The notes beneath the pieces were generated by a model that made no database searches, had not been told where the DNA came from, and was given only the letters and a program-made list of their open reading frames with translations. A program made the position numbers and the translations under genes. A stretch of DNA of 64,000 nucleotides from Candidatus Acidiferrales bacterium (GTDB taxonomy: Bacteria > Acidobacteriota > Terriglobia > Acidiferrales > UBA7541), in assembly GCA_049592615.1 (NCBI GenBank), contig JBAWGF010000080.1, forward strand, positions 1,206 to 65,205, in the 5' to 3' direction. Positions 40,220-58,310 of the stretch are shown piece by piece. The first letter of the stretch is position 1. Every line of letters starts with the position of its first letter.

Positions 40220-41109
40220 AGGCTTCCCTCCACGAGCACCGGTGTCCGCCGCGCCTCCGCCAGCAAGGGCTTGCGGTACAACCTGCAATCGCCGAGAACC
40301 ATGGATTCAAACTTTACCGGCGCGTTCGAAAGCGTCTCCGAGTGCCCCAGCAGAAAATATCCGCCGGGTTCGAGCGCGTCAAAAAAGCGGCGAAGAATCG
40401 AATGCCGCCGGTCCTCCGAGAAATACATCAACACGTTCATGCAAAAGATGCAGTCGAGCTTTCCGACGTAAACCGACTCGACCAGATTCATTTGCGCGAA
40501 CGAAATCATTTTCCGGATTCGCGGCCGCACCAGAAATCCGTGCTTTGTCGCTGTGAAATACGTCACGAGCTGGCCCAGCGAAACATCCTGCAAGCTGCGC
40601 CGCGAATAGACGCCGCGTTCGGCGTGGCGCAGCGCGCGACGGCTGATGTCGGTCGCGAGGATTTCGATTTCCCACGCTTCCGCAAATTTCAGCGCCTCGC
40701 AGAGCGTCACAGCAATCGAGTACGGCTCTTCACCGGTCGAGCAGCCCGCGCTCCAGATCCGGAGCGTCCGCGGAACCTGCCAGAATTTCCGCTCCTGCAC
40801 TTCCGGCAAAATCTTTTTTTCGAGTGCGTCAAACACAGCGGGATAGCGGAAGAACGAAGTCTCCTGGGTCAGCAAACGCTCGAGCAGCGCCTCGTACTCA
40901 ATGCTCGAGCTGCGCACGCTTCGCAGCATCTCGGTTCCGTTCGCCAGCCCTTTTTCTTCGATGTATTCGCGCACGCGCGCCGAGAAAAACCGCTCACGCG
41001 AGGAGTCGAACAGAATTGCCGACCGCTGTTCAATCAGCGTCCGGATCTCGTCGAGCTCATGCTCGGTTAGCCTCGCGGCCGTAGCTGGATGCTGTTTCAT
41101 GTTCGGCAC
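40216..41109 (-). CDS. cheR: Chemotaxis protein methyltransferase CheR
   Basis: ETSFFRYP, RIWSAGCSTGEEPYSIA, CMNVLMYF. Confidence 0.9.
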   Translation of the reverse strand: MPNMKQHPATAARLTEHELDEIRTLIEQRSAILFDSSRERFFSARVREYIEEKGLANGTEMLRSVRSSSIEYEALLERLLTQETSFFRYPAVFDALEKKILPEVQERKFWQVPRTLRIWSAGCSTGEEPYSIAVTLCEALKFAEAWEIEILATDISRRALRHAERGVYSRRSLQDVSLGQLVTYFTATKHGFLVRPRIRKMISFAQMNLVESVYVGKLDCIFCMNVLMYFSEDRRHSILRRFFDALEPGGYFLLGHSETLSNAPVKFESMVLGDCRLYRKPLLAEARRTPVLVEGSL

Positions 41110-41152
41110 AAGTCAGCGGCCGGCCGTTTTGCGCCGGCACGCGGATCCGCCG

Positions 41153-42598
41153 TTAGCGATTCGCCCCCACGGGCGCAGTGGGCCGCGCCTCCTCAGCCGC
41201 CTCCGATTGACGCCCCGACTGCGATCTGAATTGTGCGAGCGCCTCGTTGAGCTGCTCCGAAAGCTTGACCATGTTTCCCACGGTCGAAGCCGTCTGCCGC
41301 GCGCCTTGCGTCGTCTGGCGAGTGATGCCGGAGATGATCTGCATCGCATTCGCCACGCCTTCCGTTCCGCGCACCTGCTGCTTCGAAGCGAGCGAAATCT
41401 CCTGTACGAGTTCGGCCGACTGCCGAACAACGCTTGAAATTGCTTCGAGCGCCTTTCCGGCTTGGTCGGCGAGCCCCGCTCCGACTTCCACTTCGCGAGT
41501 GCCTTCTTCCATCACGACCACCGCTTCGTTTGTCTCCGCCTGAATCGCTTTGATGAGCGCGGCAATGTCTTTCGTCGCGCTGCGGGAGTGCTCGGCCAGC
41601 TTGCGAACCTCGTCTGCGACGACCGCGAATCCGCGACCTGCCTCGCCCGCCCGCGCTGCTTCGATCGCCGCGTTGAGCGCGAGCAGGTTTGTCTGCTCGG
41701 TGATATCGTTAATCACGTTAATGATTTCTGAAATTTCAAGCGAGCGATCGCCGAGCGATTTGATTTTCTTCGCCGTCGCCTGCACCGAAGCGCGGATGCG
41801 CTGCATTCCTTCGAGCGTATCACGCACAGCGCGGTTTCCCTGTTCGGCGGCGTCGAGCGCGCGTCGTGCCGCTTCGGCGCTCGCTTCCGCGTTGTTCGAC
41901 ACCTGCTTCATCGAGACCGTCAGCTCTTCGACGGCCGACGAAGTGTTCGTGATTTCCTGGTCCTGCTGCGTCGCGCCGGCCGTCATATCGTCCGCGGCTT
42001 CGAGAATCTGGTTGGCGCTCGTGCTGACATCCACAGCCGCCTTGCGCACGCGCTCAAGAACTTTCGTGAAGTTGTCGAGCATGAAGTTCACGGAGTCCAC
42101 GACGTTGCCGAGCGCGTCGTTCGTCACCTTTCCGCGAATAGTCAGGTCGCCGCGCGCCACTTGATTGATCGTGTTGAGCAAATCGGTGATGCTCCGCTGC
42201 AATGAATCCTGAGCCTGCTGATTCGTGATGGCGTGAGCCACTTTTGCGGCGCTGCGGTTGAAATTCTCCGCGATGAATCCGAATTCGTCGTCGGAGTCGA
42301 CTTCTGCGCGCGCGCGAGAATCCCCGGCCACCAGCCGTTCTGAGAATTTCGCGAGCTCGCCCACGGGCCGGAGCACGCGCTTGCTCAGCACCATCACAAT
42401 CGAGATCGCCGCAATTACGGCAAGCGCGATGGCGCCGAGTAAGGCTCCGCCAGCACTCCCCGGAAGCGATGGCGCTTCGGTGAGCGAGAGTCCGCCCGAG
42501 TGTGCGCCCGCGTGGTAGGCGAGCCACAGCACGCCAAACAGCGCCACGCTGACGAATAGGACTAAGCCCCAAATTGCGGAACTCAAACGAGCTTTCAT
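41153..42598 (-). CDS. Methyl-accepting chemotaxis protein with a minimal periplasmic loop (2 TM, HAMP, signalling domain)
   Basis: Two TM helices are separated by ~25 residues. HAMP motif ([17 protein letters not shown]). Highly conserved hairpin [36 protein letters not shown]. Confidence 0.9.
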
Positions 42599-42650
42599 GA
42601 CTTCCTCCCAAAAACTTGTTTGCCTTGAGCGGCTCTCAGCACGAGCAGCC

Positions 42651-43181
42651 TCAAATCACCGGGACCGGAAAGACATCGGTCAATCGCCGTAGATCAACGA
42701 CGAGCGCCAGACGATCGTCATGCCGCAACATCCCGCGGCAATGTGGCACGTTGTTGGGCGCCTGGTCGAGCAGCGCCTCTTCCGTCGCCGAAAATGTGCC
42801 GATCACTTCATCCGTCGCAATTCCAAGCCTCAAATCTTCGCGATGCGGGTCGCCTTTCACGGAGGCCACCACCACATGCTTCGGGAGCAGCCCAGGCCGG
42901 CGCCCTTCCGTAAACGCGATGTCCACCAACGGCACGATCGTCCCGCGGAGATTGAAAACTCCCATCAGGAATGCCGGCGCCAGCGGAATCCGCGTCACGA
43001 TGGGCCAGTCCACGACTTCCTCGACTTCCAGCACTGAAAGGCAGAATCGCTCGCGTCCAGCGCGGAACACGCAGTATTGACGTTCGGGAAGCCTCTCCTC
43101 CGAGAGCGATTCGCTCTCGAGGAATTCCCCGGCTTCGAGTTCGACCGGTAGGCCCGCGTTTTGCTGCTCGTTCGCCATCAA
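42651..43181 (-). CDS. cheW: CheW coupling protein
   Basis: [22 protein letters not shown]...[15 protein letters not shown]. Confidence 0.85.
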
Positions 43182-43552
43182 GCAAACCTTTTCACCGCGT
43201 TAATCAATTCGTCCGGTGTGAATGGCTTCGCGACGTATCCATTTGCGCCTTGTTGCTCGCCCCAGTACCGGTCGCTCGGCGAGGTTCTCGAAGTCACCAG
43301 AATGACGGGTATCTTCGAATACAATTCCTGACTTTTGAGGTCTCTACACACCTGAAAGCCGTTGCGTTGTGGCATCACGACGTCGAGGAGAATAACGTTT
43401 GGCCGTTCTTCCTCTATCGCGTCTTCGATTTGTGTGGGGTCGGAAATCCCGACCGAGTGAAAACCGCCCCGCTGCAGCATCGACTGCATCAGGTGAACTT
43501 CCGCTACCGAGTCATCGACAATCAGGACCTTCTTCACTACTGCATTCACCAC
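43178..43552 (-). CDS. cheY: CheY-like single-domain response regulator (PilG/PilH position)
   Basis: KVLIVDDS...VILLDVVMPQRNG...ILVTS...AKPF. The start is moved to GTG 43552, preceded by GGAGG-N7. The stop overlaps the cheW start by 4 nt. Confidence 0.85.
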   Translation of the reverse strand: MVNAVVKKVLIVDDSVAEVHLMQSMLQRGGFHSVGISDPTQIEDAIEEERPNVILLDVVMPQRNGFQVCRDLKSQELYSKIPVILVTSRTSPSDRYWGEQQGANGYVAKPFTPDELINAVKRFA

Positions 43553-43587: not shown

Positions 43588-43603
43588 TGCAACTCCGCAG
43601 CCA
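43588..43603 (-). promoter_or_regulatory. Sigma-54 (-24/-12) promoter candidate upstream of cheY/che1
   Basis: The minus strand reads TGGCTGCGGAGTTGCA (TGGC-N7-TTGCA; GG-N10-GC spacing exact). It lies 36 nt upstream of GTG 43552, in the 132-nt gap after the preceding gene. Confidence 0.6.
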
Positions 43604-43684
43604 CCTTTCGCCCTGTATTCGCGCTTTGCGAACTCTTTGCAAACCTCTTTCGTTTGTATAATTTACGAGCCATGTGCACGCCCC

Positions 43685-44383
43685 TCAGGTGCCTGTGACC
43701 AGGCGATGGGACTCCCTTTCCGTCTCAGCCTGAGACTCTTTCTCACCGGCCCGCACTTCGGCCGCAAGGGATGAGAATCGTTGCACGATCTCGTTGAGCC
43801 GGAGCGCCATTGTGTGAATCGTCCGGATTTGTTCGCGACAATCCGCCGAAACCTGTCCCGGTTCGAGGAGAAGCAGATCGGCATTGCCCAAAACTGATGT
43901 CAGCGCATTGTTCACGCTCGGACGCATCTCAAGCATGTAGCGGCCGAGAGTCGCGTGGCCCTGGCTTTCGTGCGCAAGTCGCTCCGCGCGCTGTGCGCGG
44001 CTCAAGGCTTCTACTCGGCGAAGCGCTTCGTTCGAAACCAGAATTAGCGTTCCGGTCCAGCCATCCTGTCGCGGCACAATCAGGAGATGAGGGTATTCCT
44101 CGCGCAGGGAGGAAATCTCTTTTTCTTCCCCGGCGACGTATACGGCAGTCGTGGCGGGCTCTGCATCAAGAGCAGAAAGAATCTCGGATGATTTCCCGTG
44201 TCTGACTGGCCCTACGATCACGAGTTGATACCCTTCCCCGCTGCCCGAGTGCCAAACGTCGCTGGTCGCGAGCGTAATTTCCGGGACGTGGCGCTCCGCC
44301 TGCCACCGTGCGGCGACGCTGCGCGCAAATTCCGTGTCGTCCGAGACGATCAGGACGCTGGCGAGGTTCAAGAGACCCCCCAC
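43685..44383 (-). CDS. Pseudo-receiver plus DHp-like (HisKA-like) domain protein lacking the phospho-acceptor His and any ATPase domain
   Basis: REC-like VLIVSDD..., but G at the phospho-site (LVIVGPV). The H-box-like EMRPSVNNALTSVLGNADLLL aligns with VAHEVNNPLAAIVGFTDLLL of the kinase at 48447-50435, with Pro in place of His. The start is uncertain (GTG 44383 or TTG 44371). The ORF-track start at 44677 would overlap the upstream gene. Confidence 0.6.
   Translation of the reverse strand: MGGLLNLASVLIVSDDTEFARSVAARWQAERHVPEITLATSDVWHSGSGEGYQLVIVGPVRHGKSSEILSALDAEPATTAVYVAGEEKEISSLREEYPHLLIVPRQDGWTGTLILVSNEALRRVEALSRAQRAERLAHESQGHATLGRYMLEMRPSVNNALTSVLGNADLLLLEPGQVSADCREQIRTIHTMALRLNEIVQRFSSLAAEVRAGEKESQAETERESHRLVTGT
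43722..43736. promoter_or_regulatory. Perfect 7-1-7 dyad GTCTCAG-C-CTGAGAC, candidate enhancer-binding-protein site
   Basis: It lies ~120 bp upstream of the -24 element at 43603, inside the 3' end of the preceding gene. It shares the 13-mer CGTCTCAGCCTGA with 46558-46570. Confidence 0.4.
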
Positions 44384-44396
44384 TCCTCTCTGCACT

Positions 44397-46007
44397 TCAG
44401 GGTTGAAGCATTTCCGCTTCTTCAATGAATGAAAGTAATCGTTTCGTGCTGATCCCCAGATTGACGGCAGCTTCTGTATTCTTCGCTTGCTTCGCCTGCT
44501 CGACTCGTCCCTGGAAATAAGAAACTTCACTTCGAGCCAGCAATAGAGCCGATGCAAGGGCGTTCGATTCGCCGGAGCGCTTGCGCTGGTCCATGGCAAC
44601 CGCCAGCAACGCACGCGCAACCACGGCGCGCCGCAAATCCTCCGCTTCCTGCCCGCCCTTATCGACGAACGCAGCAACTTCCCAGGATGAAAGCAAAACC
44701 TTCGTGTCCTGTAAAACGACCGTGGACATCGAGCGCCCGCGCGAAGGCGGAGCCGCGATCAATTGTTCCCATATCGCCTCGAGGCACTTCTCCAATTCGG
44801 CTTGCGGGGTCGGCTGCGCGGGGGCTTGCGCGACAGGTTTTGCCGGTCGATTCACTCCTTCAGGAGCAAAAGGCGCTTTCGGCTCATTCGGAATCACATC
44901 GGAGTGCGCCTCCTTGTTTTGCGGCGCCGGAGGCGGCGGAAGGACGTGCGCATCGCCTGGCGGAGGCACGCTCAGAATCGGAGTGACTGGTTCTTCCGAC
45001 TCCGATTCGAAAATGTCGAACTTGCGTTCCGGCACAAGTGCCGTTGCTGGTGCAACATCAGGCCGCTCGCGCCCCAGTGCCTCCTCCAGGTCCGCGCGCA
45101 ACGCCAGAAGCTGTTCAAACGCGTGGCTGACAGAGTTTGCGGTGTAGTCCTTGTGAAAGGGCTGCCGCCAATTCTCGCAGTAATACCGGAGCTGCGTCGT
45201 CGGCTCGGCAGCCGAAAATCCCGCGCGGCGGCAATCCACTGTTTTCACGCCGCTCACGTCCAGTGCATCCACCCCGTCTTTTAGCGCTTTCAAGTCCGCA
45301 TGCAGCATTCGAATGAACGCGCGTCGAAGGAGAAAATTGAACCGGGTGAAGGCCACGAGGGCGGCCGGATCGTAAAACATGCATCCGGCGGATTCTTTGA
45401 GCAGCCGGCCCTGTTCGAGGAGTCCGTGCTCCATCATGTCGCGCAGGCTGTGACAATTCTCGACCGCAAAGAGGATTTCCTCGAGCGGCTGGCACCATTC
45501 AAGCGGTGTTGCATCCGCTTCGGCAAGCACGGGCTGAAGGACGCGCGCAACGTCTGTGAGCTTGATCTCGGCGCGGTAGAGTTCCTCGGGTGCACACAGC
45601 GCGAAGTACTGCACGAGCAGAAGATCGATCTTGTCGCGGTCCACCGTCGATTTGTCCGGCTTCCTCAACTGCCGGTGAATAAACGCGCGGAGACCTTGCT
45701 CGCTGGCATTCAGGACCTCCGGAGGGAGCTGGCGAATTTGATAGGCGCGAAGTTTTTCATCGACTGCCTCGAGCCATTTCATATCGCTGTCGAATGCTTC
45801 CCGCGTGGGCCGCGCCGGAGGAAGTTCGCCGGCCGGATGAGGCAGCGGCGAGAAATTAAATTGAGTCGCGAGCGCTTCATAAAGGGGATACGCGAGCCGC
45901 GCCTCGTTCCATCGCGAGTCAAAATCAGCTGGCGCAGCTCCGCCGAAACCTAAATCCTGGGTTTCGGAAGGGAGTTTTATCGTGGTGACGGGAGATTTTG
46001 TGGTCAT
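44397..46007 (-). CDS. Hypothetical cytoplasmic protein, 536 aa, no recognisable domain
   Basis: A long ORF with coding-like composition. A helical N-terminal ~330 aa is followed by a Pro-rich linker (PPPGDAHVLPPPPAPQ...PAQPTPQ) and a ~130-aa C-terminal domain. Its start overlaps the upstream gene stop as ATGA. Confidence 0.7.
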   Translation of the reverse strand: MTTKSPVTTIKLPSETQDLGFGGAAPADFDSRWNEARLAYPLYEALATQFNFSPLPHPAGELPPARPTREAFDSDMKWLEAVDEKLRAYQIRQLPPEVLNASEQGLRAFIHRQLRKPDKSTVDRDKIDLLLVQYFALCAPEELYRAEIKLTDVARVLQPVLAEADATPLEWCQPLEEILFAVENCHSLRDMMEHGLLEQGRLLKESAGCMFYDPAALVAFTRFNFLLRRAFIRMLHADLKALKDGVDALDVSGVKTVDCRRAGFSAAEPTTQLRYYCENWRQPFHKDYTANSVSHAFEQLLALRADLEEALGRERPDVAPATALVPERKFDIFESESEEPVTPILSVPPPGDAHVLPPPPAPQNKEAHSDVIPNEPKAPFAPEGVNRPAKPVAQAPAQPTPQAELEKCLEAIWEQLIAAPPSRGRSMSTVVLQDTKVLLSSWEVAAFVDKGGQEAEDLRRAVVARALLAVAMDQRKRSGESNALASALLLARSEVSYFQGRVEQAKQAKNTEAAVNLGISTKRLLSFIEEAEMLQP

Positions 46008-46354
46008 GGTTTGATGATCCAGTTTCCAACTTCGCTCGCGAAGCGCGCCGCCACTGCCTTGCGGCCTTCGTGATAGCGCACGGCAACCACGGTAGCGCGT
46101 GCGTCGAGTGAACCGTCTGAATTCAGCAACCGCACGTGATCTTCGAATTCGAGCGGTAATGCAGACGCAAACAGCACTTCCCTCGCGGTGCCGAATTCAA
46201 TGAGCGTCTGTTCCTGCAATCGCCGCCGCCCTGCGCCAAGCGTCATGACGCGCACAGGAATGCGCACCGGCGAAGCGCTGGGAAAGAGCTGAGCCAGTTT
46301 TTCCACACATGATTGTCCTGCGGATGCTGCGACAACTCCGGCCTCACGTGTCAC
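46004..46354 (-). CDS. Small hypothetical protein, possibly a degenerate PilZ-like domain
   Basis: 116 aa with a GTG start. It contains RIPVR (RxxxR-like), but the second PilZ motif is not conserved (IEFGTAREV). Confidence 0.5.
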   Translation of the reverse strand: MTREAGVVAASAGQSCVEKLAQLFPSASPVRIPVRVMTLGAGRRRLQEQTLIEFGTAREVLFASALPLEFEDHVRLLNSDGSLDARATVVAVRYHEGRKAVAARFASEVGNWIIKP

Positions 46355-46461
46355 GGGTTCCCCAATCCTTTCGCCCTCTACCGAGCCAATTCGTTCCTCA
46401 TTTCAAGCGGAATCAGCCGGGCAGACGAAATCCGATGCGAAACACTCGCCCGGGAGGAGAT

Positions 46462-46477
46462 TGCACGAGCGCGGCCA
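46462..46477 (-). promoter_or_regulatory. Sigma-54 (-24/-12) promoter candidate upstream of the three-gene unknown operon
   Basis: The minus strand reads TGGCCGCGCTCGTGCA (GG-N10-GC spacing exact; the -12 is GTGCA). It lies 108 nt upstream of GTG 46354, in the 297-nt gap downstream of the EBP gene. Confidence 0.5.
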
Positions 46478-46558
46478 AAGATTTCGGCATGCGCGCAATC
46501 CTAAGTGGCGTGCTTGCTTACAGTTGGTAGAGCAGGATCGAAGAAGTCTCGCGATTTC

Positions 46559-46573
46559 GTCTCAGCCTGACAC
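46559..46573. promoter_or_regulatory. Near-perfect dyad GTCTCAG-C-CTGACAC, candidate enhancer-binding-protein site
   Basis: It lies ~85 bp upstream of the -24 element at 46477. It shares the 13-mer CGTCTCAGCCTGA with 43721-43733. Confidence 0.4.
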
Positions 46574-46651
46574 ACTTGCGTCTCAAGTGCGCTTGTCAGA
46601 ATGTGTCGACAGAACGGGAATGGAAACCGGCGCGAAACGTCTCACGATCAT

Positions 46652-48052
46652 CTATTGAAGGGTTTCGACCGGCTGTTTGTGCGAGGAACGTAGTGGAATG
46701 TTATAACGTTTTAGTTTTCGATAAAGCGTCGCCCGGCTGATGCCAAGCATTCTCCCCGCGAGGGCCTTGTCTCCTCCGGCCTGGTCGAAGACGCGCAAGA
46801 TTGTCATTCTTTCGAGGTCCGCAAGCGCCGTGGTGGAAAGCGCTGCTGCATCGGGGCCGTCCGCGCCGCCGTCGAGGGCCACGTTGATATTGGGCGGAAG
46901 ATCTGCCACGTCAATCACGCGATGATCACCCAGAGCCACGGCGCGGGCGATGCAATTTTCCAGCTCGCGAACATTTCCCGGCCAATCGTATTGCAGGAAG
47001 CCTTTCATCGCCGCAGGAGTCACCTGAATATTCTTGTCGGGTGCGTAACGATCGAGAAAGCAGTGCACGAGCTGCGGAATATCGGAGCGGTGATCGCGCA
47101 GGCTGGGCAGGTGCACTGTGACGACGTTCAACCGGAAATAGAGATCCTTGCGAAACGTCCCGGCCCGATACGCCGCTTCCAGGTCCCGGTTTGTCGCCGC
47201 TATGATGCGCACGTCCACCGGAATTTTCTCGTTGCTGCCGACGGGCCTCACTTCTTTTTCTTGCAGCACACGCAACAACTTCGCCTGCATTTCCAGCGGC
47301 AACTCACCGATCTCGTCGAGAAAGATTGTTCCGCCATTCGCCGCTTGAAACAATCCGGGCTTTGATTTGAGCGCTCCTGTGAATGCGCCCTTCTCGTGGC
47401 CGAAAAGTTCGCTTTCCATTAGCGTGGGGACCAGCGTGCCGCAATCCACCGCGATAAAAGGCATTTGCGCCAGCGGCCCGCGGAAGTGAATTGCGCGCGC
47501 CACCAGTTCTTTTCCCGTCCCGCTCTCGCCCATGATGAGGACCGGCGTGCGTGTCTCCTTCAAGCGCGAAACCATCCGCATCATGTCCTGAATCTTGGCT
47601 GAAGTCCCCACGATGCCGTCGAGCTGCGATTCCGTATTCACGCGCTCGCGCAGAAATTGATTTTCTGTCACGAGCCGCACTTTCTCAGCCATTCGCTGCA
47701 AAAGCTGGCGCAGCTTTTCCACGCGGAATGGCTTCTCAATGTAGTCGTAGGCACCCTGACGCATCGCATCCACGGCTGATTCGATCGAGCCGTGCCCCGT
47801 CATGATGGCGACCTCGGTTCGCGGCAATTGGTCCTTAATTTTGCGCAGCAGGTCCGCGCCAGACAGGCTCGGCAGCTTCAAGTCGGTGACGACGATATCC
47901 GGTGGCGCCGTCTCGAGCGACTCGAGTGCTGCCTCCGCCGTCTCCGCTTCGAACGATTGAAAGCCCAGCCCCTGCCCGACCGTCATGCAAAGCCGCCGGA
48001 TGCTCTGCTCGTCGTCCACAATCAAAAAACGAAGCCTCTGTTCGTCTTTCAT
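46652..48052 (-). CDS. NtrC-family sigma-54-dependent transcriptional activator (REC, AAA+, Fis-type HTH)
   Basis: REC ([19 protein letters not shown]); Walker A GESGTGKE; GAFTGA present; Walker B FLDEIGE; C-terminal [17 protein letters not shown]. Confidence 0.9.
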
Positions 48053-48450
48053 GATCTCCCGATCGTTTTCTCAACCGCGACCATGAGCTGCTGGACGCGA
48101 AAGGGTTTTTCTACGCACGGCGTTCCGTCCTGCGCAAGGAGCGCGACAGTTTCGGCACTCGCCGTGTCTCCGGTAATGAAAATAATGCGCGATGTCAGTT
48201 CGGGCCGGTGCCGGCGGATCCAGTCATGTACGTCGGCGCCCGTAATTCCTCCCGGAGTCCGGAAATCTGAGATGACTCCGCGAAAATCTTCCGTCGCCAG
48301 CAATTGCAAACCCTCGGCGGCCGATGAAGAAGGAACCACCTCGTAGCCGCGCCGCTCGAGCGCCGTGCGCATGAAGGCGGCAACCGATGGTTCATCCTCT
48401 ATCACCAGGATGCGCGCCCGCGGTGCCGCTGCACCTTTCGAACCATTCAT
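48049..48450 (-). CDS. Single-domain response regulator
   Basis: ILVIEDE, VISDFRTPG, FITGD, EKPF. ATGA overlaps with both neighbours. Confidence 0.85.
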   Translation of the reverse strand: MNGSKGAAAPRARILVIEDEPSVAAFMRTALERRGYEVVPSSSAAEGLQLLATEDFRGVISDFRTPGGITGADVHDWIRRHRPELTSRIIFITGDTASAETVALLAQDGTPCVEKPFRVQQLMVAVEKTIGRS

Positions 48451-50435
48451 TGCGAGGCCTCTGCTGCCAGCAATTCGGCCGCTTTACTTGCTACAGGGAG
48501 CCGCACAAGGAAGGTGCAACCCACGCCGTCGGGATTGTTGCGCGCCACAATCTCGCCGCGATGCGCGCGCACAATGCCGTAACAAATGCTCAGACCCAGT
48601 CCGGTGCCTTTGCCGACTTCTTTCGTCGTGAAGAACGGATCGAAGATTCGGTCGGGTTGCGAAATGCCGGGCCCGTTATCACGAAACACAATCTCGAGAT
48701 GATCGTTGCGGTGCGAAGTCTCAATCTCGATTTTTCCGCGCCTTCGAGTCTCCTGCACGGCATCGTAGGAATTGTTCAGGATGTTGAGAAACACCTGCTG
48801 CAATTGGTGCGGATCGCCCACCATTTCCGGCAGTTCTTTTTCGTACCGCTCGGAAAGCTCAACGCCGTGATTCGAAAAATCGTACGCTCGCAATTTCAGC
48901 GTCTGACGCAGAATCGAATTCACCTGTACGGGCTCGCGCTGCGCCGGCATCTGCCGCGCAAAGCTGAGTAGGTTCTGGACGATCACGCGCGTGCGCTGCG
49001 CTTCCTGGAGAATCACTCGCAATTCTTCCTTTGCCGGCTCCGGTATCTCGGGATTCTCGAGCAGCAGGTCCGTGAAGCCGACGATCGCCGCAAGCGGATT
49101 GTTCACTTCGTGCGCAACGCCAGAGACAAGTTGGCCGAGCGCCGCCATTTTTTCCGTGTGCATCAGCTTGGCCTGCAAATCGGCAGCATCCGTGATATCC
49201 GTCATCACCACCACGATGCTGTTGATGTCTCCCTGCTCGTCGCGCATCGGACTCAGGCTGATGGAAAATTGACCCGCCGTCCCATTGCCACGGACGAGCG
49301 GAACCTCAAGGTTATCGAGCGCCGCTCCTTGCAGCGTTCGCTCGAGTGCCTCGGCCAGCAGAGGACGCCGCGCTTGCGGGATCATCTTGACCAGCGGCTG
49401 ACCCAACAGATCTTGTTCGCGATAGCCTGATTCGAAACATCGGCGATTCGCATAGCTGACCAGCCCTGCCGTATCGAGCACGAGGATCATGCTCTGTGTA
49501 TTGTTCAGAATATTTTTGTTGAAGTCGCGCTCGCGCCGGTAGCGCCGCTCGGCTTCGCGTCGGTCCGTGATGTCTTTAAGGACGTGAATCGTGCGCAGAT
49601 CATCCTGGTGGCCGGTGTGAATGCGCGACGCGGAGACCAGATACGTGCGCTCCGCGGCTTGGTGGGTGAATTCCTCTTGTGCCGCCTTCGAATCTCGGCA
49701 GAACGGGCATCGCCCCGGCTGCATCGTTGACCCAAGGAGTTCCAGCTTTCCCATGTCCCGGCCGATCGCTTCCGTGGGACGCACCCCCAGTGCACTTGCG
49801 AGCGCACGATTCAAACGAAGCACGCGGTTCTTGTTGTCGTGCACGACAATGAAATCGGAAATGGCATCGAAGTCCTCGACCCACTGCTTTCGCGACTGCT
49901 CGATTCGCGAGAACAGCCGTACATTCTCGAGCGCAACCGATGCGTGTCCCGCCAACGCTTCGAGCAGTTGCCGCTCCGCCGCAGTAAGTTCACGCGCCAA
50001 ATCCACGAGGCACAGCACGCCGAGCAATTCCCCACCGCTTCCCATCAGGCGCGTGAGGACCAATTCTCCCCAGCTCAGCGCTTCCGCCAACTCGCGCCCT
50101 AACAACCGCTCCGCTGGGGTGCGCCGCAGCTCGACAAAAGACGCGGGGGCCTGTCCCGCCAATGCCTGTCCTAGCCGCTGCTGAACGCGCGCGTCCCAGC
50201 GATGAGCCGGACCACTGAGCGCCGCAATCTCCCATTCGGAGCCGCACTCGAGCGTTAAGACCGCTGCGCGAGCGCCGAGCATTTCCGCGGCACGCGCGGT
50301 CAACCGCCGAGCAAATTCTGTAGTGCCAAGCGACGGGTTCAGTTCCAGCGTCGTGGCGGAAAATTGGGCCAGCAGACTCTCAAATGATCCATCGAGACGA
50401 GTAGGCACTTCGCGAATTCGCTTTAATGCGCGCAT
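48447..50435 (-). CDS. Cytoplasmic sensor histidine kinase (GAF, two PAS, HisKA, HATPase)
   Basis: No TM helix is evident. GAF-like N-terminus, two PAS-like segments, H-box AHEVNNPL, N-box NILNNSYDA, G-boxes DNGPGI and GTGLGLSI. Confidence 0.88.
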   Translation of the reverse strand: MRALKRIREVPTRLDGSFESLLAQFSATTLELNPSLGTTEFARRLTARAAEMLGARAAVLTLECGSEWEIAALSGPAHRWDARVQQRLGQALAGQAPASFVELRRTPAERLLGRELAEALSWGELVLTRLMGSGGELLGVLCLVDLARELTAAERQLLEALAGHASVALENVRLFSRIEQSRKQWVEDFDAISDFIVVHDNKNRVLRLNRALASALGVRPTEAIGRDMGKLELLGSTMQPGRCPFCRDSKAAQEEFTHQAAERTYLVSASRIHTGHQDDLRTIHVLKDITDRREAERRYRRERDFNKNILNNTQSMILVLDTAGLVSYANRRCFESGYREQDLLGQPLVKMIPQARRPLLAEALERTLQGAALDNLEVPLVRGNGTAGQFSISLSPMRDEQGDINSIVVVMTDITDAADLQAKLMHTEKMAALGQLVSGVAHEVNNPLAAIVGFTDLLLENPEIPEPAKEELRVILQEAQRTRVIVQNLLSFARQMPAQREPVQVNSILRQTLKLRAYDFSNHGVELSERYEKELPEMVGDPHQLQQVFLNILNNSYDAVQETRRRGKIEIETSHRNDHLEIVFRDNGPGISQPDRIFDPFFTTKEVGKGTGLGLSICYGIVRAHRGEIVARNNPDGVGCTFLVRLPVASKAAELLAAEASQ

Positions 50436-50716
50436 GGAGGATAGAGGACCTGTGCTCGTTTCGCCTTTACTAGGTTGACGTTACGGTCTCATCTCATTTT
50501 GAGTCAAGGCATGTACCTAGGCGTGTTGCCGTAACGGGCAATCAGGCCCGCGTCGCAACCTGAGACTCAAAACTCACGCTATGGGGACGTTTGAGACGCT
50601 CATCTGCCGACATCCCTTTGATCCGGAGAAGTCGCGCGTCTAGTAACCACTTCTGAATCAATTGTTTAGCATGCTCCACAGCTATTTCTTGACGACCCCA
50701 AAGTTCACCTCCTCCA

Positions 50717-50732
50717 TGGCATTGCCATTGCA
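50717..50732 (+). promoter_or_regulatory. Sigma-54 (-24/-12) promoter candidate upstream of the TonB-C gene and che2
   Basis: TGGCATTGCCATTGCA (TGGCAT-N5-TTGCA, close to consensus TGGCAC-N5-TTGCA). It lies 44 nt upstream of ATG 50776, which has a GGGGAGGG RBS. Confidence 0.65.
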
Positions 50733-50775: not shown

Positions 50776-51129
50776 ATGAAGCAGAGATTCGGGGTTGCGG
50801 GACTTGGACTTTTGCTGCTGTTACTGGGATCGGCGGTCGTACCGCCGAAGGCTGTCGCGCAAGATGCATCCAGCGAGTCGCCCAAGCGCAAAGTAAAGAC
50901 CCGCGCTGTGCCTGAGTATCCTCCGCTTGCCAAGCAGTACAACGTCACCGGAAAAGTGAAAATCGAGGCAAAGATTTCATCCGACGGGCACGTAGTCGAG
51001 ACGAAGGTGATCGGTGGCAGCCCGTTGCTGGTGGGTGCCGCAATCGAAGCACTAAAAAAGTGGCGTTTTGAACCTTCGGCAAAAGAATCGAGCGAAGTTT
51101 TCGAGTTTAGTTTTTCGGGCCTGAACTAG
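50776..51129 (+). CDS. Periplasmic TonB C-terminal-domain protein (no TM/Pro-rich TonB body)
   Basis: Signal peptide MKQRFGVAGLGLLLLLLGSAVVPPKAVAQ, then PEYPPLAKQYNVTGKVKIEAKISSDGHVVETKVIGGSPLLVGAAIEALKKWRFEP. Confidence 0.75.
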   Translation: MKQRFGVAGLGLLLLLLGSAVVPPKAVAQDASSESPKRKVKTRAVPEYPPLAKQYNVTGKVKIEAKISSDGHVVETKVIGGSPLLVGAAIEALKKWRFEPSAKESSEVFEFSFSGLN

Positions 51130-51186
51130 CATCCGTCAGCCTGCCATTGGGGGCATCGCGACGCGCGTGGAGTGGAGGCGTTTCAC

Positions 51187-53190
51187 ATGACGATCAGTAA
51201 GAAATTGTATTTGGGATTCGGCGCCATTCTGGCGATCATGCTCGGCCTGTTCATCATCAACATCTTCACGGTCATCCGCGAATATAGCGCGCGCTCCACC
51301 GTGGCCGTCACGCTCGCCGATGTGCAGACCATCGAGACGGTCCGCTTCCAGATGATGGAAAATCGCCAGTACCTCGGGAATTATCTCCTGAGCGGCGATC
51401 TGCGCGATGAAGACAGGGCCAATCATGGAATCAACGACCTTCACGAGCTTTTGCGCGAAGCAGGAAATAAAGCGCACGATGTCTATCTCCGCTCGGCTCT
51501 CACTCAAGTGGAGGAAAATGAACACAACTGGGCGGACAATTTTGCGAAACCGATGATCGCCAAACGTCACCAAGTGGACGCGGGCGATGCTACAGTTTCC
51601 GACCTCCAGATCTTCTATCTGCAACACGATCCTGGTTCGTGGATCAACAAGTCCTCGGGCGTGCTCGACGAGGCCAATCGCGCGGTTCGCAGGGCGCTCG
51701 AAGAATCGAACTCGTCAGCCTCTTCCGCCACGGCTGTCAGCACGGGCATCACCACGGCCGGAACATTGCTTGCCATTCTCCTCGGAGGATGCATCGCCTT
51801 CTACACGGCCAAGTCGATTCGACAACCGCTATACCACTTGATTGATGTCGCGCATCGGATTGGCGAGACGGGTGATCTGGATCAGACGATCGACATCCAC
51901 CGCGCCGATGAAGTAGGCATGCTCGCGAATAATTTCAACAAGATGATCGTCCATTTGAAGGACATGGCCGCTGTCTCTGCATCCATTGCCGAGGGTCAAT
52001 TGTCGGTTGCGGTGCAGCCACGATCGCAGCAGGACACCATGGCCAAGGCATTCGCGCGAATGACGCAGGGACTTCGCGATCTCGTCCGCCAGGTTCGCGA
52101 CAGTGCCGGACAGGTCGCGAGCGGCGCGGGACAGATGGCGAGCGCCTCCGATGAATCGGCCAAGGTCAACGTGCAGGCGGCCTCGGCAATCGATGAAGTC
52201 ACGAGCACGATGCACGAGATGAGCATCAATGTGCAAAACGTCGTGAAGAATACGCAGGTTCAGGGATCGAGCGTCGCCGAGACCTCCGCATCGATCGACC
52301 AGATGGTCACTTCGATCGACCGCGTCGCCGACACGGCCAAGCTACTCGTTGACATATCGCACCGCTCTCGCGAAGAAGTTCAAACCGGCATGGTCACCAT
52401 GGACAAGGCCACCCAGGGTCTCAATCGTACGAGTCACGCAATCCAGTCGTCGGCCGAAATCATCGATGTGCTCGGGCGTCGCGCGGACGATATCGGCAAG
52501 ATCATCGAAGTGATCGACGATCTCGCCGAACAGACGAACCTGCTCGCGTTGAACGCCGCGATCGAAGCGGCTCGCGCCGGGGAGCACGGTCTTGGGTTCG
52601 CCGTGGTCGCGGAAGAAGTGCGGAAGCTCGCGGAAAAATCCACGCAGTCCACGAAGGAAATTTCTGAACTGATTGAAGGCATTCAAAAAGAGGCGCGCGA
52701 AGCCGTCGAGAACATGGAAAAGAGTACGACCATGGTGCAGGAAGGTTTGTTGCTGAACAAAGACCTCGGCCTAGCGCTTGAGAAAATCTCCGAAGTCGTC
52801 GGTGAGGTTTACAAATTCTCTCAGGAAATCGGCGCAGCCACTATGGAGCAGTCGAGCGGCTCGGCGCAGATTGCCAAGGCCACCAATCGCCTCACCGAAA
52901 TCACGCAGGAGATCACCTCTTCGGTCGAAGAGCAGGCATCGGGAGCGCAGGCGGTGGTCCGTGCGATGGAGAAAATGCGCGAGTTGGTCCAGCAGTCCAC
53001 CTCGAGTTCCACGGAACTCGCAGCTGCCGCCGAACAAATGTCGAAGCTGTCTCGCGCGCTTCTCGAAACCATGGATCGCTTTGTGATCGAGGAAAACTAC
53101 AACGACGGCCGGCGATATCCCGCGCGGCGCCCGGAGCCGGGCGGCGAACGAAATCCTCAGCACGAGTACGCAGAAGCGATTCGCTCTTGA
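51187..53190 (+). CDS. Methyl-accepting chemotaxis protein with a four-helix-bundle-type periplasmic sensor, HAMP and signalling domain
   Basis: TM1 [19 protein letters not shown], a ~170-aa helical ectodomain, TM2, HAMP, and conserved [36 protein letters not shown]. Confidence 0.9.
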
Positions 53191-53207
53191 GGGCTCACTC
53201 GCAAATC

Positions 53208-53699
53208 ATGCAAAAGGAACTTCAGATCGTCGGATTCCGGATCGGGCGCGAAACGTTCGGGCTGCCCATCTCCCTGGTCCGGGAAATCGTGCGCGTCCCG
53301 GAAATAACCTCCGTGCCGAACGCACCCGACTACATTGAAGGAGTGATCAACCTCCGCGGCCGGATTATTCCCGTCGTGGATCTGAGGAAACGATTCCATG
53401 AAGAGGTGGGCGAACCGAATAAGAAAAACCGAATCGTTGTGGTGGAGCTGGAGAGCCGCGCGATTGGTTTGATTGTGAATTCGGCTTCGGAAGTATTGAA
53501 AATTCCACCCTCCGACATCCAGGCGCCGCACGAAGTTTTTCCGGAAGGCGAGATGGACTACATAACCGGCGTGGGAAAGCTGAAAGGGCGGCTTGTGATC
53601 CTGCTCGACCTGAATCGCATTTTGCAGCGCGGGGAGCTGCATCGTCTGGATGAAGTCGCCGATTCCGCAGCCACTGTTCCGACCGGCAGCATGAGATGA
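53208..53699 (+). CDS. cheW: CheW coupling protein
   Basis: LQIVGFRIGRETFGLPISLVREIV...GVINLRGRIIPVVDL. The start may instead be TTG 53187, which overlaps the MCP stop. Confidence 0.85.
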   Translation: MQKELQIVGFRIGRETFGLPISLVREIVRVPEITSVPNAPDYIEGVINLRGRIIPVVDLRKRFHEEVGEPNKKNRIVVVELESRAIGLIVNSASEVLKIPPSDIQAPHEVFPEGEMDYITGVGKLKGRLVILLDLNRILQRGELHRLDEVADSAATVPTGSMR

Positions 53700-53741
53700 A
53701 CTTTCTGAGCCGCACTCGGGGGAAATAACGACGAGGGACGA

Positions 53742-54647
53742 ATGTCCACACTCAGTACTGAGGTCCCGCTCACCGATGCCGAATTAAAGCTCCTGCAGAC
53801 GCTCGTCTACCAGGAGTGCGGCATGTATTTCGACGAGCGCCGCACTCATTTCCTGCGCGATCGCCTCCAACGCCGCCTGAAAGCATGCCAGATGGAATCC
53901 TTCTACAGCTACTACCGGCTGCTGACCAGCCGGGAGGGCAAGCAGGAGCTCGTGGCGCTGCTCGAAAATCTTACGGTCAATGAGACCAGCTTCTTCCGCA
54001 TTCGCCCTCAACTCGATCTCTTCCAGAAAGTCGTTCTTGAAGAAATCCTGAAGCGAAAGCAGGAGCGCCGGGATTGGTCCATTCGCATCTGGAGCGCGGG
54101 CTGCTCAACGGGCCAGGAGCCATACTCGCTCGCAATCCTCGTTTGCGACGCCCTTGCTTACTACTACCTGCGCAACCCGCTTCCCTTCGAAATGCCCACT
54201 CCGAAGCCGCTGATTCCCCCGCCGTGGAAGGTGGAAATCATCGCTTCCGACATCAACTACTCGGCCTTGCTCACCGCGCAACAAGGAATCTACAGCGAAT
54301 CGCAGATGGAAACGGTGGAATACACCTGCCGGCTGCGCTATTTCGACAAAGTCGGCGATAAGTACGCCGTAAAACCAGCCTTGAAGAATCTGGTCCAGTT
54401 CGACTTCCATAATTTGAAAACGGAATATCTACCGCAGCGCAACGATGCGATTTTCTGCCGCAACGTCATGATCTACTTTGACGAAGCAGAGCAGAAGCGC
54501 CTGATCGAAAAATTCCATCGGTGTCTCAATCCCGATGGCTATCTCTTCGTCGGCCACGCGGAAAGCCTTTTCGGTCTGACAACGAAGTACCACATGATCC
54601 ATCAAAACAATGGGACCGTTTATCAGCGGCTCGAGGTGACGCAGTGA
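53742..54647 (+). CDS. cheR: Chemotaxis protein methyltransferase CheR
   Basis: ETSFFRI, RIWSAGCSTGQEPYSLA, CRNVMIYF. Confidence 0.9.
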   Translation: MSTLSTEVPLTDAELKLLQTLVYQECGMYFDERRTHFLRDRLQRRLKACQMESFYSYYRLLTSREGKQELVALLENLTVNETSFFRIRPQLDLFQKVVLEEILKRKQERRDWSIRIWSAGCSTGQEPYSLAILVCDALAYYYLRNPLPFEMPTPKPLIPPPWKVEIIASDINYSALLTAQQGIYSESQMETVEYTCRLRYFDKVGDKYAVKPALKNLVQFDFHNLKTEYLPQRNDAIFCRNVMIYFDEAEQKRLIEKFHRCLNPDGYLFVGHAESLFGLTTKYHMIHQNNGTVYQRLEVTQ

Positions 54648-56734
54648 ATTATTTTTCCGACGACCGCGCTTCCGAGCTGCGCGAGCTTTTCTTTGAAAGC
54701 GCTGCAGAAATTCTGCAGGGCATGAACGAGGCGGGGCTCGCCCTCGAAGCAAGTCCTACTGATCAGGAAAGTCTGCGCCGCGTGCGCCGCGCTGTCCACA
54801 CGCTGAAGGGTGATTCGGCGGCTTGCGGGTTCCGCGAGCTCAGCGAACTCTCGCACGAACTCGAAGACGTCCTGACGCCGGAGCTGGCCAAAGAAAATGC
54901 AGGATTGATCGCAGAGGTAGTCCTTACCGCCGCCGACACGTTTCACGAAATGCTCGCGGCTTATCGCGATCGTCTCAGACCTCCCGACGGCAAGGCCCTC
55001 CGCGAGCACATCCAGCGCCTATTGCGAAAACCGGTCGCGAAGCCGCAAAAGCCTGCGGCGGAAACGCACTTCGAGTGGACCGAATACCAGCGGCTTATGA
55101 TTGCAGAGGCGTTCCGCAAGGGCGAGACGGTGTACCACGTCGCGATGCACCTCGATCCCGAGGCGTTCCTGCCCGCTGCGTCCTATGAATTGGCCCGCAA
55201 GGCCCTCCAGAGCGCGGGAAAAATTCTTGCTCTGCATCCGGAAACCGCGCCGGTCGCCCACGTCGGCCTGATGGAAGCAGCGATCTCGAGTGCAAAGTCC
55301 GCGGATTGGATCAAGAAACGGTGCCGTGTGCCTTCCGTCGTGGTGAAGATTTCCGTTGAAAAATTGCCCGTCCCGAAATCCGTGCCGCGCGACCTGCTGG
55401 AAATCCTCCTCGAATCCGAAGCGGCTGCAGTTTCAGCGGGGATTACGCCCGCGCGAACCGAATCACCGGAAAGCCACGATGCGGAATCGGGAGCGCCCGG
55501 CGCGGCACCGGGAGGTGCTCATGCTGCCGCTGAAAACACCTTGCGCGTGGATGCCGGACGCATCGACGTCGTGATGAATCTGGTCGGCGAACTCATCATC
55601 GGAAAATCCATGCTGCATCGGACTCTCGACGAATTCGCACGGCGGCACTCGAAGGATCCACTGCAAGGAAAATTTGCCGACGCGCTCGCCTTCCAGTCGC
55701 GCATTCTCGGGGAATTGCAAAAGTCTGTCATGAAAATCCGAATGGTGCCGGTCGAGCAGCTCTTCCGCCGCTTCCCACGGGTCGTGCGAGACGTCGCCAA
55801 GCAGCGAAATCGCGACATTACCCTCGAACTCGCCGGACAGACGACCGACCTCGACAAAAGCATCCTCGACGCGCTCGCCGAACCGCTTGCTCACCTCGTG
55901 CGCAATGCAGCCGACCACGGAATCGAATCAGCTGCCGATCGAGCAGCCGCTGGAAAACCGGAACGCGGCACAATTCGAATGAACGCCTATCACGAAGGGA
56001 ACCAGGTCGCCATCGAGGTCTCGGACGATGGGCGCGGACTCGATCGCGAAAAAATTGTGCGCCGCGCAATTGAGTCCGGCATCATCCAGGCCGAAGAAGT
56101 CGCCCGGCTGAATGAAACAGAATCGCTTCAGCTTGTTTTCAAACTGGGACTCAGTACGGCAGACGAAGTGACCGAGATTTCTGGCCGTGGAGTGGGACTC
56201 GACGTCGTTCGGTCAGCTCTCGAAAACCTGAAGGGCTCCATCGAACTCGAAAGCAGGCCCGGCAAGGGCACCACGTTCCGGCTCATGGTCCCGCTAACCC
56301 TTGCGAGCATTCAAGCTCTCCTGTTCCGCGTTGCTGCACGCCTCTACGCCGTCCCGCTCGCTTCCGTTCAGGAAATCACGCGCATTCACGAAAACGAGAT
56401 TCACCGCGTGGATGATCGGGAAGTCTTTCAACTTCGCGAACAGGTTCTCACGCTGGTCCGGCTCGATCGCCTCGGGCCTAAAGAAGCACGCGGGCGCGCT
56501 GACCGTATTTTCGTGATCGTGATCGGTGCGGGAAGCCGCCGATTCGGACTTGCAGTGGACACTCTGATGGGCGAAGAGGAACTTGTGATCAAAGCTCTCG
56601 AAGATCGCCTGATCACTTCTCCCCTCGTGAGCGGCGCCTCCATCCTCGGCGATGGAACCGTGGTTCTGATCTTGAATGTGCCGGCTGTGATCGCTCATCT
56701 CTCGAGAATCCCGGCAGTGGGGGCCACGGCATGA
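54644..56734 (+). CDS. cheA: CheA histidine kinase (single Hpt, no receiver)
   Basis: Hpt AVHTLKGDSAACGF, HLVRNAADHGIE, DDGRGLD, GRGVGLDVV, C-terminal CheW-like domain. GTG 54644 overlaps the cheR stop as GTGA. Confidence 0.9.
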   Translation: MNYFSDDRASELRELFFESAAEILQGMNEAGLALEASPTDQESLRRVRRAVHTLKGDSAACGFRELSELSHELEDVLTPELAKENAGLIAEVVLTAADTFHEMLAAYRDRLRPPDGKALREHIQRLLRKPVAKPQKPAAETHFEWTEYQRLMIAEAFRKGETVYHVAMHLDPEAFLPAASYELARKALQSAGKILALHPETAPVAHVGLMEAAISSAKSADWIKKRCRVPSVVVKISVEKLPVPKSVPRDLLEILLESEAAAVSAGITPARTESPESHDAESGAPGAAPGGAHAAAENTLRVDAGRIDVVMNLVGELIIGKSMLHRTLDEFARRHSKDPLQGKFADALAFQSRILGELQKSVMKIRMVPVEQLFRRFPRVVRDVAKQRNRDITLELAGQTTDLDKSILDALAEPLAHLVRNAADHGIESAADRAAAGKPERGTIRMNAYHEGNQVAIEVSDDGRGLDREKIVRRAIESGIIQAEEVARLNETESLQLVFKLGLSTADEVTEISGRGVGLDVVRSALENLKGSIELESRPGKGTTFRLMVPLTLASIQALLFRVAARLYAVPLASVQEITRIHENEIHRVDDREVFQLREQVLTLVRLDRLGPKEARGRADRIFVIVIGAGSRRFGLAVDTLMGEEELVIKALEDRLITSPLVSGASILGDGTVVLILNVPAVIAHLSRIPAVGATA

Positions 56735-57858: not shown

Positions 57859-57860
57859 TT

Positions 57861-58310
57861 ATGAAACAGTTTGAAGCATTGACGCGAAAGAAAGACAGTC
57901 AGGCAGTCCGCTATTTGATTGTGGACGACTCTGTCTTCGCGCGAAAGAGTCTGGCGAAGATGGTCGAGTCGTTCGCAGGCCAGGTGGTGGGCGAAGCGGG
58001 TGACGGGTGCACGGCGATCACTGAGTACGCGCGGACGAAGCCCGACATCGTCCTCATGGATATCACCATGCCGCAGATGGAAGGAATCGAAGCGGTCGAG
58101 CGAATCGTGGCAGAGCATCCCGAGGCTCGCATCGTCATGGTTTCTTCGGTCGGCTACCAGGACAACATTTTGGCCGCGCTCCAAAAGGGCGCGCGCCATT
58201 TTGTCCAGAAGCCGGTGAAGCCCGATGCGCTCTACGAAATCATCCGGTACGTGCTCAACGATGACGGCGTCACTTCGCCGGTCGGCGCGGGAGGGGAGAA
58301 TTCGCGATGA
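57861..58310 (+). CDS. cheY: CheY response regulator
   Basis: YLIVDDS, VLMDITMPQMEG, MVSS, QKPV. GGAGA RBS 6 nt upstream of ATG 57861. Confidence 0.88.
   Translation: MKQFEALTRKKDSQAVRYLIVDDSVFARKSLAKMVESFAGQVVGEAGDGCTAITEYARTKPDIVLMDITMPQMEGIEAVERIVAEHPEARIVMVSSVGYQDNILAALQKGARHFVQKPVKPDALYEIIRYVLNDDGVTSPVGAGGENSR

Follow-up and report, generated by a model that had tools for sequence, protein, structure and literature searches.

Three predicted sigma-54 promoters with a shared upstream palindrome around an NtrC-type activator gene of uncultured Acidobacteriota

Introduction

Do two chemosensory gene clusters and an operon of proteins without a family answer to the single NtrC-type activator whose gene they surround? 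The question is raised by a stretch of DNA of 64,000 nt (below, the window) from Candidatus Acidiferrales bacterium (NCBI GenBank assembly GCA_049592615.1, contig JBAWGF010000080.1, positions 1,206-65,205 of the forward strand). A reading of this DNA made without database searches (the sequence-only reading) had pointed to three matches to the -24/-12 promoter of sigma-54 around one gene for an enhancer-binding protein (EBP): P1 upstream of the chemosensory cluster che1, P2 upstream of the unkA-unkB-unkC operon (unkABC) and P3 upstream of a second cluster, che2, that is headed by a gene for a secreted TonB_C-domain protein. Here we report that this interpretation of the three sites is borne out by footprinting over 80 syntenic loci and by a palindrome, of which that reading made no mention, that is found at a fixed distance upstream of each site. 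From these comparisons we consider it very probable that P1, P2 and P3 are genuine sigma-54 promoters, and probable that the locus forms one sigma-54 regulon with three promoters under the control of the local activator.

Results

Conservation of the three promoter elements

With the activator protein as query, a scan limited to a single genome of each species gave a comparative set of 80 loci, all from metagenome-assembled genomes (MAGs) of Acidobacteriota ('Ca. Acidiferrales/Acidoferrum'), with essentially the same gene order and with activators that are 74-88% identical. TGG-N9-TGC keeps a constant distance to the gene that follows it at all three promoters. At P1 this holds for 66 of 70 loci, the opposite-strand control giving 1 of 70. 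At P2, the element TTTGG(C)-N8-(G/T)TGCA was kept in every one of 69 loci (control, 2/69), and at P3 all 75 loci had TGGCA-N7-(G/T)TGC(A/C) (control, 27/75 over a wide zone of 790 nt), in 65 of them 436-510 nt from the start of the mcp gene of che2 (mcp2). A more distant clade has TGGCA-N7-GTGCC at P3, with its position unchanged. In logos anchored on the elements, each column of TGGC and TGC(A) contains ~2 bits, as against ~0 bits in the spacer of 7-8 nt and in the upstream flank; thus neutral positions are saturated with change, and only the determinants of sigma-54 recognition have been held. Common to all three promoters, too, is a GG(G/A) at about +2 to +5 of the predicted starts (~43574-43577, 46447-46450 and 50744-50746), the predicted start of P1 coinciding with a conserved run of G. 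Initiation may favour this trinucleotide, or a leader element common to the three transcripts may begin with it. (Note that the TonB_C gene is absent from loci L029, L040, L031 and L032, where P3 is only 137-207 nt from the start of mcp2, and that loci L008, L012, L014 and L023 have ~400 nt of additional sequence between P3 and mcp2.)

The window taken by itself says less. The three 16-mers were read back at the positions and on the strands that the sequence-only reading had claimed, each with the spacing GG-N10-GC, and the list of open reading frames (ORFs) and the gene map place them in intergenic DNA facing the next gene. Distances to the start codons are 38 nt (cheY GTG), ~107 nt (unkA) and 43 nt (TonB_C ATG), in agreement with the 36-108 nt given previously. 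The strict pattern TGGC-N7-TTGCA, which had been ascribed to all three sites, fits only P1 and P3 (P2 has GTGCA), and its rarity had been overrated: the window holds two matches as against 0.71 expected (~0.5 by the earlier estimate), and at least two occurred in 17 of 100 shuffles. Matches to the looser TGG-N9-TGCA number 11 as against 7.2 expected, which is not significant. The earlier argument from location, that such hits fall in the little DNA that is non-coding, has modest support in the fact that 3 of the 11 matches to TGG-N9-TGCA lie in promoter-like slots, that is, in the 2.26% of all position/strand slots that are intergenic and precede a start on the same strand by at most 130 nt (binomial test, P = 1.7e-3).

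A scan with a sigma-54 weight matrix, a check that had been proposed together with the matches, was run on the window with our own approximation of the published consensus. It ranked P3 first in the whole window (15.7 bits). P1 scored 8.4 bits (33rd overall, 5th of the intergenic positions) and P2 7.3 bits (51st and 8th, respectively), and so the scan speaks for P3 and is not convincing for P1 and P2 by score alone. (The second-best intergenic match, at 10.1 bits, is CGGGCAAAACGACTGCA at 29069-29085 on the plus strand, 47 nt upstream of an ORF of 99 amino acids without a family; the T of TGG is missing from it, and no palindrome lies close by.) P3 can also be read as part of a palindrome, ATGGCA-T-TGCCAT (50716-50728, also flagged as a terminator-like stem), which we regard as coincidental since it is not kept in orthologs.

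A palindrome at a fixed distance upstream of each promoter

The 15-bp palindrome GTCTCA-N3-TGAGAC is found upstream of all three promoters, accompanied in each case by one or two extra half-sites, and we put it forward as a new activator-site motif and candidate binding site. In an unbiased count of 6-mers in the 250 nt upstream of each promoter in the orthologs, GTCTCA/TGAGAC came first or joint first (66/66, 66/67 and 71/71 for the three regions) and stood at fixed offsets. In MAFFT alignments, the elements are conserved islands amid unconserved DNA, with the consensus TGAGA-N5-TCTCA-N3-TGAGAC in region 1, TGAGAC-N6-GTnTCA-N3-TGAGAC in region 2 and GTCnCA-N3-TGAGAC with a second TGAGAC 31 bp off in region 3. 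The centre of the palindrome lies 126, 91 and 158 bp upstream of the GG of P1, P2 and P3, respectively, and each distance is constant to ±1 bp across the unconserved DNA between them. The half-site as such is not rare: TGAGAC occurs 27 times in the window as against 28 expected, with 8 of these copies in the three regulatory regions. Besides the half-sites of upstream activator site 2, there is a further TGAGAC at 46639-46644. The full palindrome is another matter. Allowing at most one mismatch in 12, we found it 203 times in the three zones, which make up 4.7% of the 1.54 Mb of sequence searched, and 21 times elsewhere; all 21 of the latter come from loci for which the zone definitions failed, and they too fall within the three regions; hence 224 of 224 near-perfect palindromes belong to these regulatory regions.

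Two further observations bear on what is being conserved. Upstream activator site 1 (43722..43745) is embedded in the 3' part of the unkC reading frame, and of 59 unique sequences 57 have TCT as the Ser codon within its palindrome, while two unkC codons have an invariant T in the third position despite a varying amino acid. The constraint on this palindrome acts on the DNA and not on the UnkC protein. Moreover, palindrome and promoter are lost together: the four loci without a canonical P1 are also without its palindrome. In two of them, L078 and L079 (~13300-13500), unkC, P1 and the palindrome are all absent and cheY follows unkB after ~30 nt, so that che1 would there be served by P2. In the other two, L031 and L032, unkC is kept but palindrome and canonical -24/-12 element are both gone. 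The joint losses are natural variation in how the operon is built.

The local activator and its operon

The sequence-only reading had placed an NtrC-type activator carrying GAFTGA at 46652-48052, and both Pfam (Response_reg, 6.7e-26; Sigma54_activat, 7.5e-70; HTH_8, 2.6e-11) and direct reading of the motifs agree. The protein has a receiver with Asp at position 56 (D56), Walker A, GAFTGA, Walker B (FLDEIG) and a Fis-type helix-turn-helix (HTH), that is, the architecture of NtrC-family response-regulator EBPs (REC, AAA+ with GAFTGA, C-terminal HTH_8), and its top match among solved structures is the NtrC-family entry 4l4u. Among NCBIfam models the best is AtoC (433.6 bits against a cutoff of 714), with ntrC at 412.8 bits against a cutoff of 558.6; the activator is thus of an uncharacterised subfamily that corresponds to no named equivalog (AtoC, NtrC, ZraR, NtrX, GlrR and others). 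In 81 orthologs the HTH is at least 95% invariant, which is consistent with an invariant palindrome but is not diagnostic of it.

The reading frames of the kinase, the response regulator and the EBP overlap by 4 nt, and because of this overlap we treat the three genes as one operon. Upstream of it is a sigma-70-type promoter of which the -35 element TTGACT is present in 70 of 70 loci, followed 17-18 nt downstream by TAnnnT in 65 of 67 unique sequences. A palindrome-like sequence, ATCTCA-N3-TGAGTC (50491-50505, two mismatches), overlaps the -35 element and the spacer of this promoter. By analogy with NtrC sites that lie over sigma-70 promoters, the overlap suggests that this sequence is a candidate autoregulatory site of the kinase operon.

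The unkABC operon

Searches of Pfam, NCBIfam and PDB sequences with UnkA, UnkB and UnkC gave nothing except a weak HisKA match in UnkC, and the public names of all three are 'hypothetical'. UnkB (536 amino acids) is conserved and has more than 3,396 homologs, all called 'hypothetical' and none with a Pfam domain. Its AlphaFold model (predicted local distance difference test, pLDDT, of 70) consists of two all-helical domains with a disordered Pro-rich linker (residues 314-400), and comparison of the model with PDB folds gave no match (best E = 0.037). A single JGI label calls the protein an 'HPt domain' protein, which is unsupported given a model without a fold match. UnkC (236 amino acids) has a receiver-like N terminus and a DHp (HisKA-like) domain without an ATPase domain, the DHp domain aligning with that of the local kinase (31% over 87 residues, E = 5e-7), to which it is paralogous. 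The phospho-accepting His of its H-box is present in 25 loci of a distant clade (KH[S/N]VNNAL), whereas 21 loci of the window's clade have Pro in its place (RP[S/G]VNNAL). A feedback or relay role for UnkC is possible.

Organization of the locus

Coordinates of the promoters, predicted activator sites and genes are collected in Table 1. P3 and upstream activator site 3 share the divergent intergenic region of 341 nt that separates the kinase gene from the TonB_C gene. Downstream of che1 (32531-35132, minus strand) are genes for a REC-DUF4388 protein, a response regulator of 251 amino acids and a PilZ-domain protein, which are possible outputs of the che1 pathway. (Note that five loci of the comparative set, L011, L027, L028, L034 and L053, come from MAGs labelled Binatus/Binatia, Verrucomicrobiia, Dormiibacterota or Eremiobacteraceae. 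In these the locus is fully syntenic and the activator 76-86% identical, and the contigs are probably mis-binned or mislabelled.)

Table 1. Coordinates of predicted regulatory elements and genes in the window
Feature	Coordinates	Strand	Details or basis
P1, predicted sigma-54-type promoter upstream of che1: TGGCTGCGGAGTTGCA	43603..43588	-	GG 43602-43601; GC 43590-43589; predicted start ~43577
P2, predicted sigma-54-type promoter upstream of unkABC: TGGCCGCGCTCGTGCA	46477..46462	-	GG 46476-46475; GC 46464-46463; predicted start ~46451
P3, predicted sigma-54-type promoter upstream of TonB_C-che2: TGGCATTGCCATTGCA	50717-50732	+	GG 50718-50719; GC 50730-50731; predicted start ~50743
Upstream activator site 1 (predicted), perfect palindrome GTCTCAGCCTGAGAC	43722-43736		TGAGA half-site 43741-43745
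Upstream activator site 2 (predicted), TGAGAC-N6-GTGTCA-GGC-TGAGAC	46559..46585	read on -	palindrome 46559-46573; extra half-site 46580-46585
Upstream activator site 3 (predicted), palindrome GTCGCAACCTGAGAC	50552-50566		TGAGAC half-site 50592-50597, 31 bp downstream
Sigma-70-type promoter of the kinase-response regulator-EBP operon	50478..50507	-	-35 TTGACT 50507..50502; -10 TAACGT 50483..50478
che1 cluster (predicted P1 target)	36126..43549	-	Pfam; gene order kept in syntenic loci
cheB of che1	36126-37244	-	Pfam
cheA-REC of che1	37244-40288	-	Pfam
cheR of che1	40216-41109	-	Pfam
mcp of che1	41153-42598	-	Pfam
cheW of che1	42651-43181	-	Pfam
cheY of che1	43178-43549	-	Pfam; GTG start at 43549
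unkA-unkB-unkC operon (predicted P2 target)	43685..46354	-	without Pfam or NCBIfam family
unkC	43685-44395	-	receiver-like domain and His-less DHp domain
unkB	44397-46007	-	without Pfam or NCBIfam family
unkA	46004-46354	-	ORF start uncertain by ~40 nt
NtrC-type EBP	46652..48052	-	Pfam, motifs
Single-domain response regulator	48049-48450	-	Pfam
GAF-PAS-HisKA-HATPase sensor kinase	48447-50435	-	Pfam
TonB_C-che2 cluster (predicted P3 target)	50776..58310	+	Pfam, NCBIfam; gene order kept in syntenic loci
Secreted TonB_C-domain protein	50776-51129	+	ATG at 50776 agrees with public gene call
mcp of che2	51172-53190	+	Pfam, NCBIfam
cheW and cheR of che2	between mcp and cheA	+	Pfam, NCBIfam
cheA of che2	54521-56734	+	Pfam, NCBIfam
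cheB of che2	56731-57858	+	Pfam, NCBIfam
cheY-like gene of che2	~57903-58310	+	Pfam, NCBIfam

Other features of the window

The sequence-only reading had also listed a weaker fourth match at 11177-11192 (minus strand), upstream of an HD-GYP operon. Eighty orthologous loci of the HD-GYP gene were fetched. The GG of the match is not kept in 68 orthologous loci, of which 27 have some GG-N10-GC in the zone, which is the chance level. We therefore reject this match as a sigma-54 promoter. What is conserved upstream of the HD-GYP gene instead is a -10-like box, TATACT (~11156-11161, minus strand), ~35 nt before the ATG. In the 63 unique orthologous sequences of the region (11126-11269), conservation extends to this box and to a block of ~37 nt (~11233-11269, CGCGCAAGGCTAACAAACG...GATTCAAG) that overlaps the start of a divergent CHASE2-cyclase gene. 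Elsewhere, a tRNA gene at 1359-1432 (minus strand; Rfam RF00005, 67 bits) overlaps a spurious plus-strand ORF at 1157-1516.

Discussion

A proposed circuit and its alternatives

We propose, and think it rather likely, that the adjacent activator, phosphorylated by its co-transcribed kinase, binds the palindromes, oligomerises and opens P1, P2 and P3 by looping. Sigma-54 RNA polymerase would read the three promoters, forming a closed complex that could not open the DNA unaided. The GAF-PAS kinase would phosphorylate the activator on Asp56, the activator would bind the palindromes through its Fis-type HTH, and the phosphorylated protein would assemble an ATPase ring, loop the DNA and touch sigma-54 via GAFTGA, thereby opening the promoters. 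The output would be joint expression of che1 and TonB_C-che2, which together would supply two complete chemosensory pathways, and of unkABC. The operon of kinase, response regulator and activator would in addition be autoregulated via the fourth, palindrome-like site over its own sigma-70-type promoter. Note that we infer the transfer of phosphate from kinase to activator as well as the sign of the autoregulation.

Several observations weigh against this proposal. P1 and P2 match the general sigma-54 consensus weakly, in that positions -22/-21 are not AC and position -15 is often G. The palindrome is assigned to the local activator from adjacency and conserved synteny only, and the HTH of the activator is similar in many activators and so is not diagnostic for the palindrome. 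IHF-like sites between palindrome and promoter are not conserved (6/66, 1/69 and 6/72 loci), and the distances from palindrome to promoter differ in helical phase (91 bp versus 126 and 158 bp). Finally, a tblastn search with a C-terminal segment of RpoN found no rpoN in the window or in 160 loci (2.08 Mb), a negative that is uninformative because these are fragments only. Family annotation of the proteins of the window likewise includes no RpoN. RpoN was encoded in all three Acidobacteria genomes of a survey from 2011 (PMC3372290).

If the promoters are genuine sigma-54 promoters, the palindrome could still be bound by a protein encoded elsewhere (another activator, a repressor or an anti-activator), with the local activator serving other targets. 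That bacteria of this kind usually have many activators with near-identical HTH helices speaks for such an arrangement, as does the fact that the local activator falls in no characterised equivalog of NCBIfam. We nevertheless consider it unlikely, since in essentially all 80 loci the activator gene stands in synteny with the three pairs of palindrome and promoter, it is the only gene of its type in the window, all 224 copies of the palindrome in 1.54 Mb are in this locus, and a palindrome-like site lies over the promoter of the activator's own operon, as expected for an autoregulated regulator. It is far less likely that the TGG...TGCA blocks are binding sites of some other factor or promoters of another class, either sigma-70 or extracytoplasmic function (ECF). 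Such a reading would fit the modest scores of P1 and P2 on the general sigma-54 matrix, but the conserved bases are the exact determinants of sigma-54 recognition (TGGC, TGCA and GG-N10-GC), the spacer varies freely, and this holds for three unrelated promoters and for two clades; the 12-nt spacing of the blocks does not fit -35/-10 or ECF promoters. Nor is there a sigma-70 consensus at the blocks (between 43400 and 51000 we found no sigma-70 consensus promoter, as against 1.8 expected under the criteria applied), and upstream of each block, at 91-158 bp, is an enhancer-like site, with the gene for a GAFTGA activator adjacent.

The palindromes might, alternatively, act as RNA, in terminating or stabilising hairpins or in leader structures. 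GTCTCAGCCTGAGAC is able to form a hairpin of 6 bp, was flagged as terminator-like on the plus strand and is situated at the 3' end of unkC. Against this, among departures from the palindrome consensus 147 cells break complementarity, 50 leave only a possible G:U pair and 11 are compensatory; because variants that break pairing far outnumber those that restore it, the palindrome behaves as a protein-binding site rather than as an RNA hairpin. Furthermore, the transcribed (minus) strand has no run of T at the palindrome, the same palindrome is found ahead of P3, in divergent DNA that is not transcribed, the spacing from palindrome to GG is fixed to ±1 bp, no Rfam family matched between 43400 and 51000, and terminator-like matches in that interval are at chance level in number. 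An action as RNA is, in our judgement, highly improbable. As for the promoter matches being functionless products of chance, the pattern counts in the window are indeed near what chance would give (2 vs 0.71 and 11 vs 7.2). Set against these counts are the retention of the elements in 66-75 loci while their flanks are saturated with change and the outcome of the location test within the window, and we regard a chance origin as effectively refuted by comparative conservation, leaving it next to no probability.

The proposal of a sigma-54 regulon under the local activator provides a complete and testable cis-regulatory map consisting of three promoters, an activator-site motif, rigid spacings between enhancer and promoter and a probable autoregulatory site. 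On this map, a single cytoplasmic signal, sensed through GAF and PAS domains, should induce both chemosensory systems together with a conserved operon whose function is unknown. The host group comprises widespread, uncultured soil and peat Acidobacteriota in which the control of transcription is almost uncharted, and a defined DNA site together with a protein is now available for testing in vitro, where no culture is required. The concept itself is the standard paradigm of sigma-54 and enhancers, and so known biology would be extended here and not changed.

Comparison with known systems

The NtrB/NtrC-glnAp2 system of enteric bacteria is the textbook case of a sigma-54 promoter with upstream NtrC sites, and NtrC sites also overlap and repress sigma-70 promoters. 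The locus described here resembles it in having GG-N10-GC promoters with palindromic upstream sites ~100-150 bp away, a REC-AAA+(GAFTGA)-HTH_8 activator encoded in one operon with a PAS-type kinase, and a site over the sigma-70-type promoter of the regulator operon. It differs in the sequence of the site (GTCTCA-N3-TGAGAC as opposed to TGCACC-N5-GGTGCA for NtrC), in predicted targets that are chemosensory clusters instead of nitrogen assimilation genes and in a kinase with GAF as well as PAS sensor domains. In its architecture the locus follows the classical NtrC/glnAp2 design and departs from it in the site sequence. AtoS and AtoC, the best NCBIfam matches of the kinase and the activator, share with the proteins of the window a PAS-HisKA-HATPase kinase and the same activator architecture; the scores, however, are far under the equivalog cutoffs (433.6 vs 714 for the activator and 282.6 vs 646 for the kinase), and no acetoacetate genes are nearby.

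Control of che genes by sigma-54 has precedents. In Geobacter, che clusters have predicted sigma-54 promoters whose starts precede the first start codon by 16-50 nt (PMC2577667, which cites sigma-54 regulation in Rhodobacter sphaeroides as well), and here, too, whole che clusters would be under -24/-12 promoters, with predicted leaders of 28-33 nt (P1 and P3). The Geobacter predictions were matrix scores in a single genome, with no activator or enhancer assigned; the present ones come from another phylum and combine conservation over 80 loci with a shared upstream site and a candidate activator.

The nearest analogue in layout, and in layout only, is CrdS/CrdA-Che3 of Myxococcus xanthus (PMC3147164). 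There, as here, genes for an NtrC-like activator and a kinase are beside a chemosensory cluster, the che operon is headed by a gene for a small envelope protein (CrdB there, the TonB_C-domain protein here) and one CheA of the neighbourhood is a CheA-REC hybrid. CrdA is the output of a Che pathway without CheY, and its targets were stated to be unknown (PMC3147164). In contrast, both che clusters of the window encode CheY-like receivers (the cheY and cheY-like genes of Table 1) and are predicted targets of the activator, and CrdS is a membrane HAMP kinase whereas the GAF-PAS kinase looks soluble. A tentative extension of the proposed circuit, to which we give only a small chance, is that two whole chemosensory pathways are 'on-demand' rather than constitutive, gated by one switch of GAF-PAS kinase and sigma-54 activator that also drives the lineage-specific unkABC, with UnkC acting as decoy or phosphatase, either in feedback on the pair of kinase and activator or in linking the Che pathways to that pair. 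If true, this would be a new circuit design joining chemosensory systems and sigma-54 control, one that would be the reverse of, or form a loop with, the logic of CrdA/Che3.

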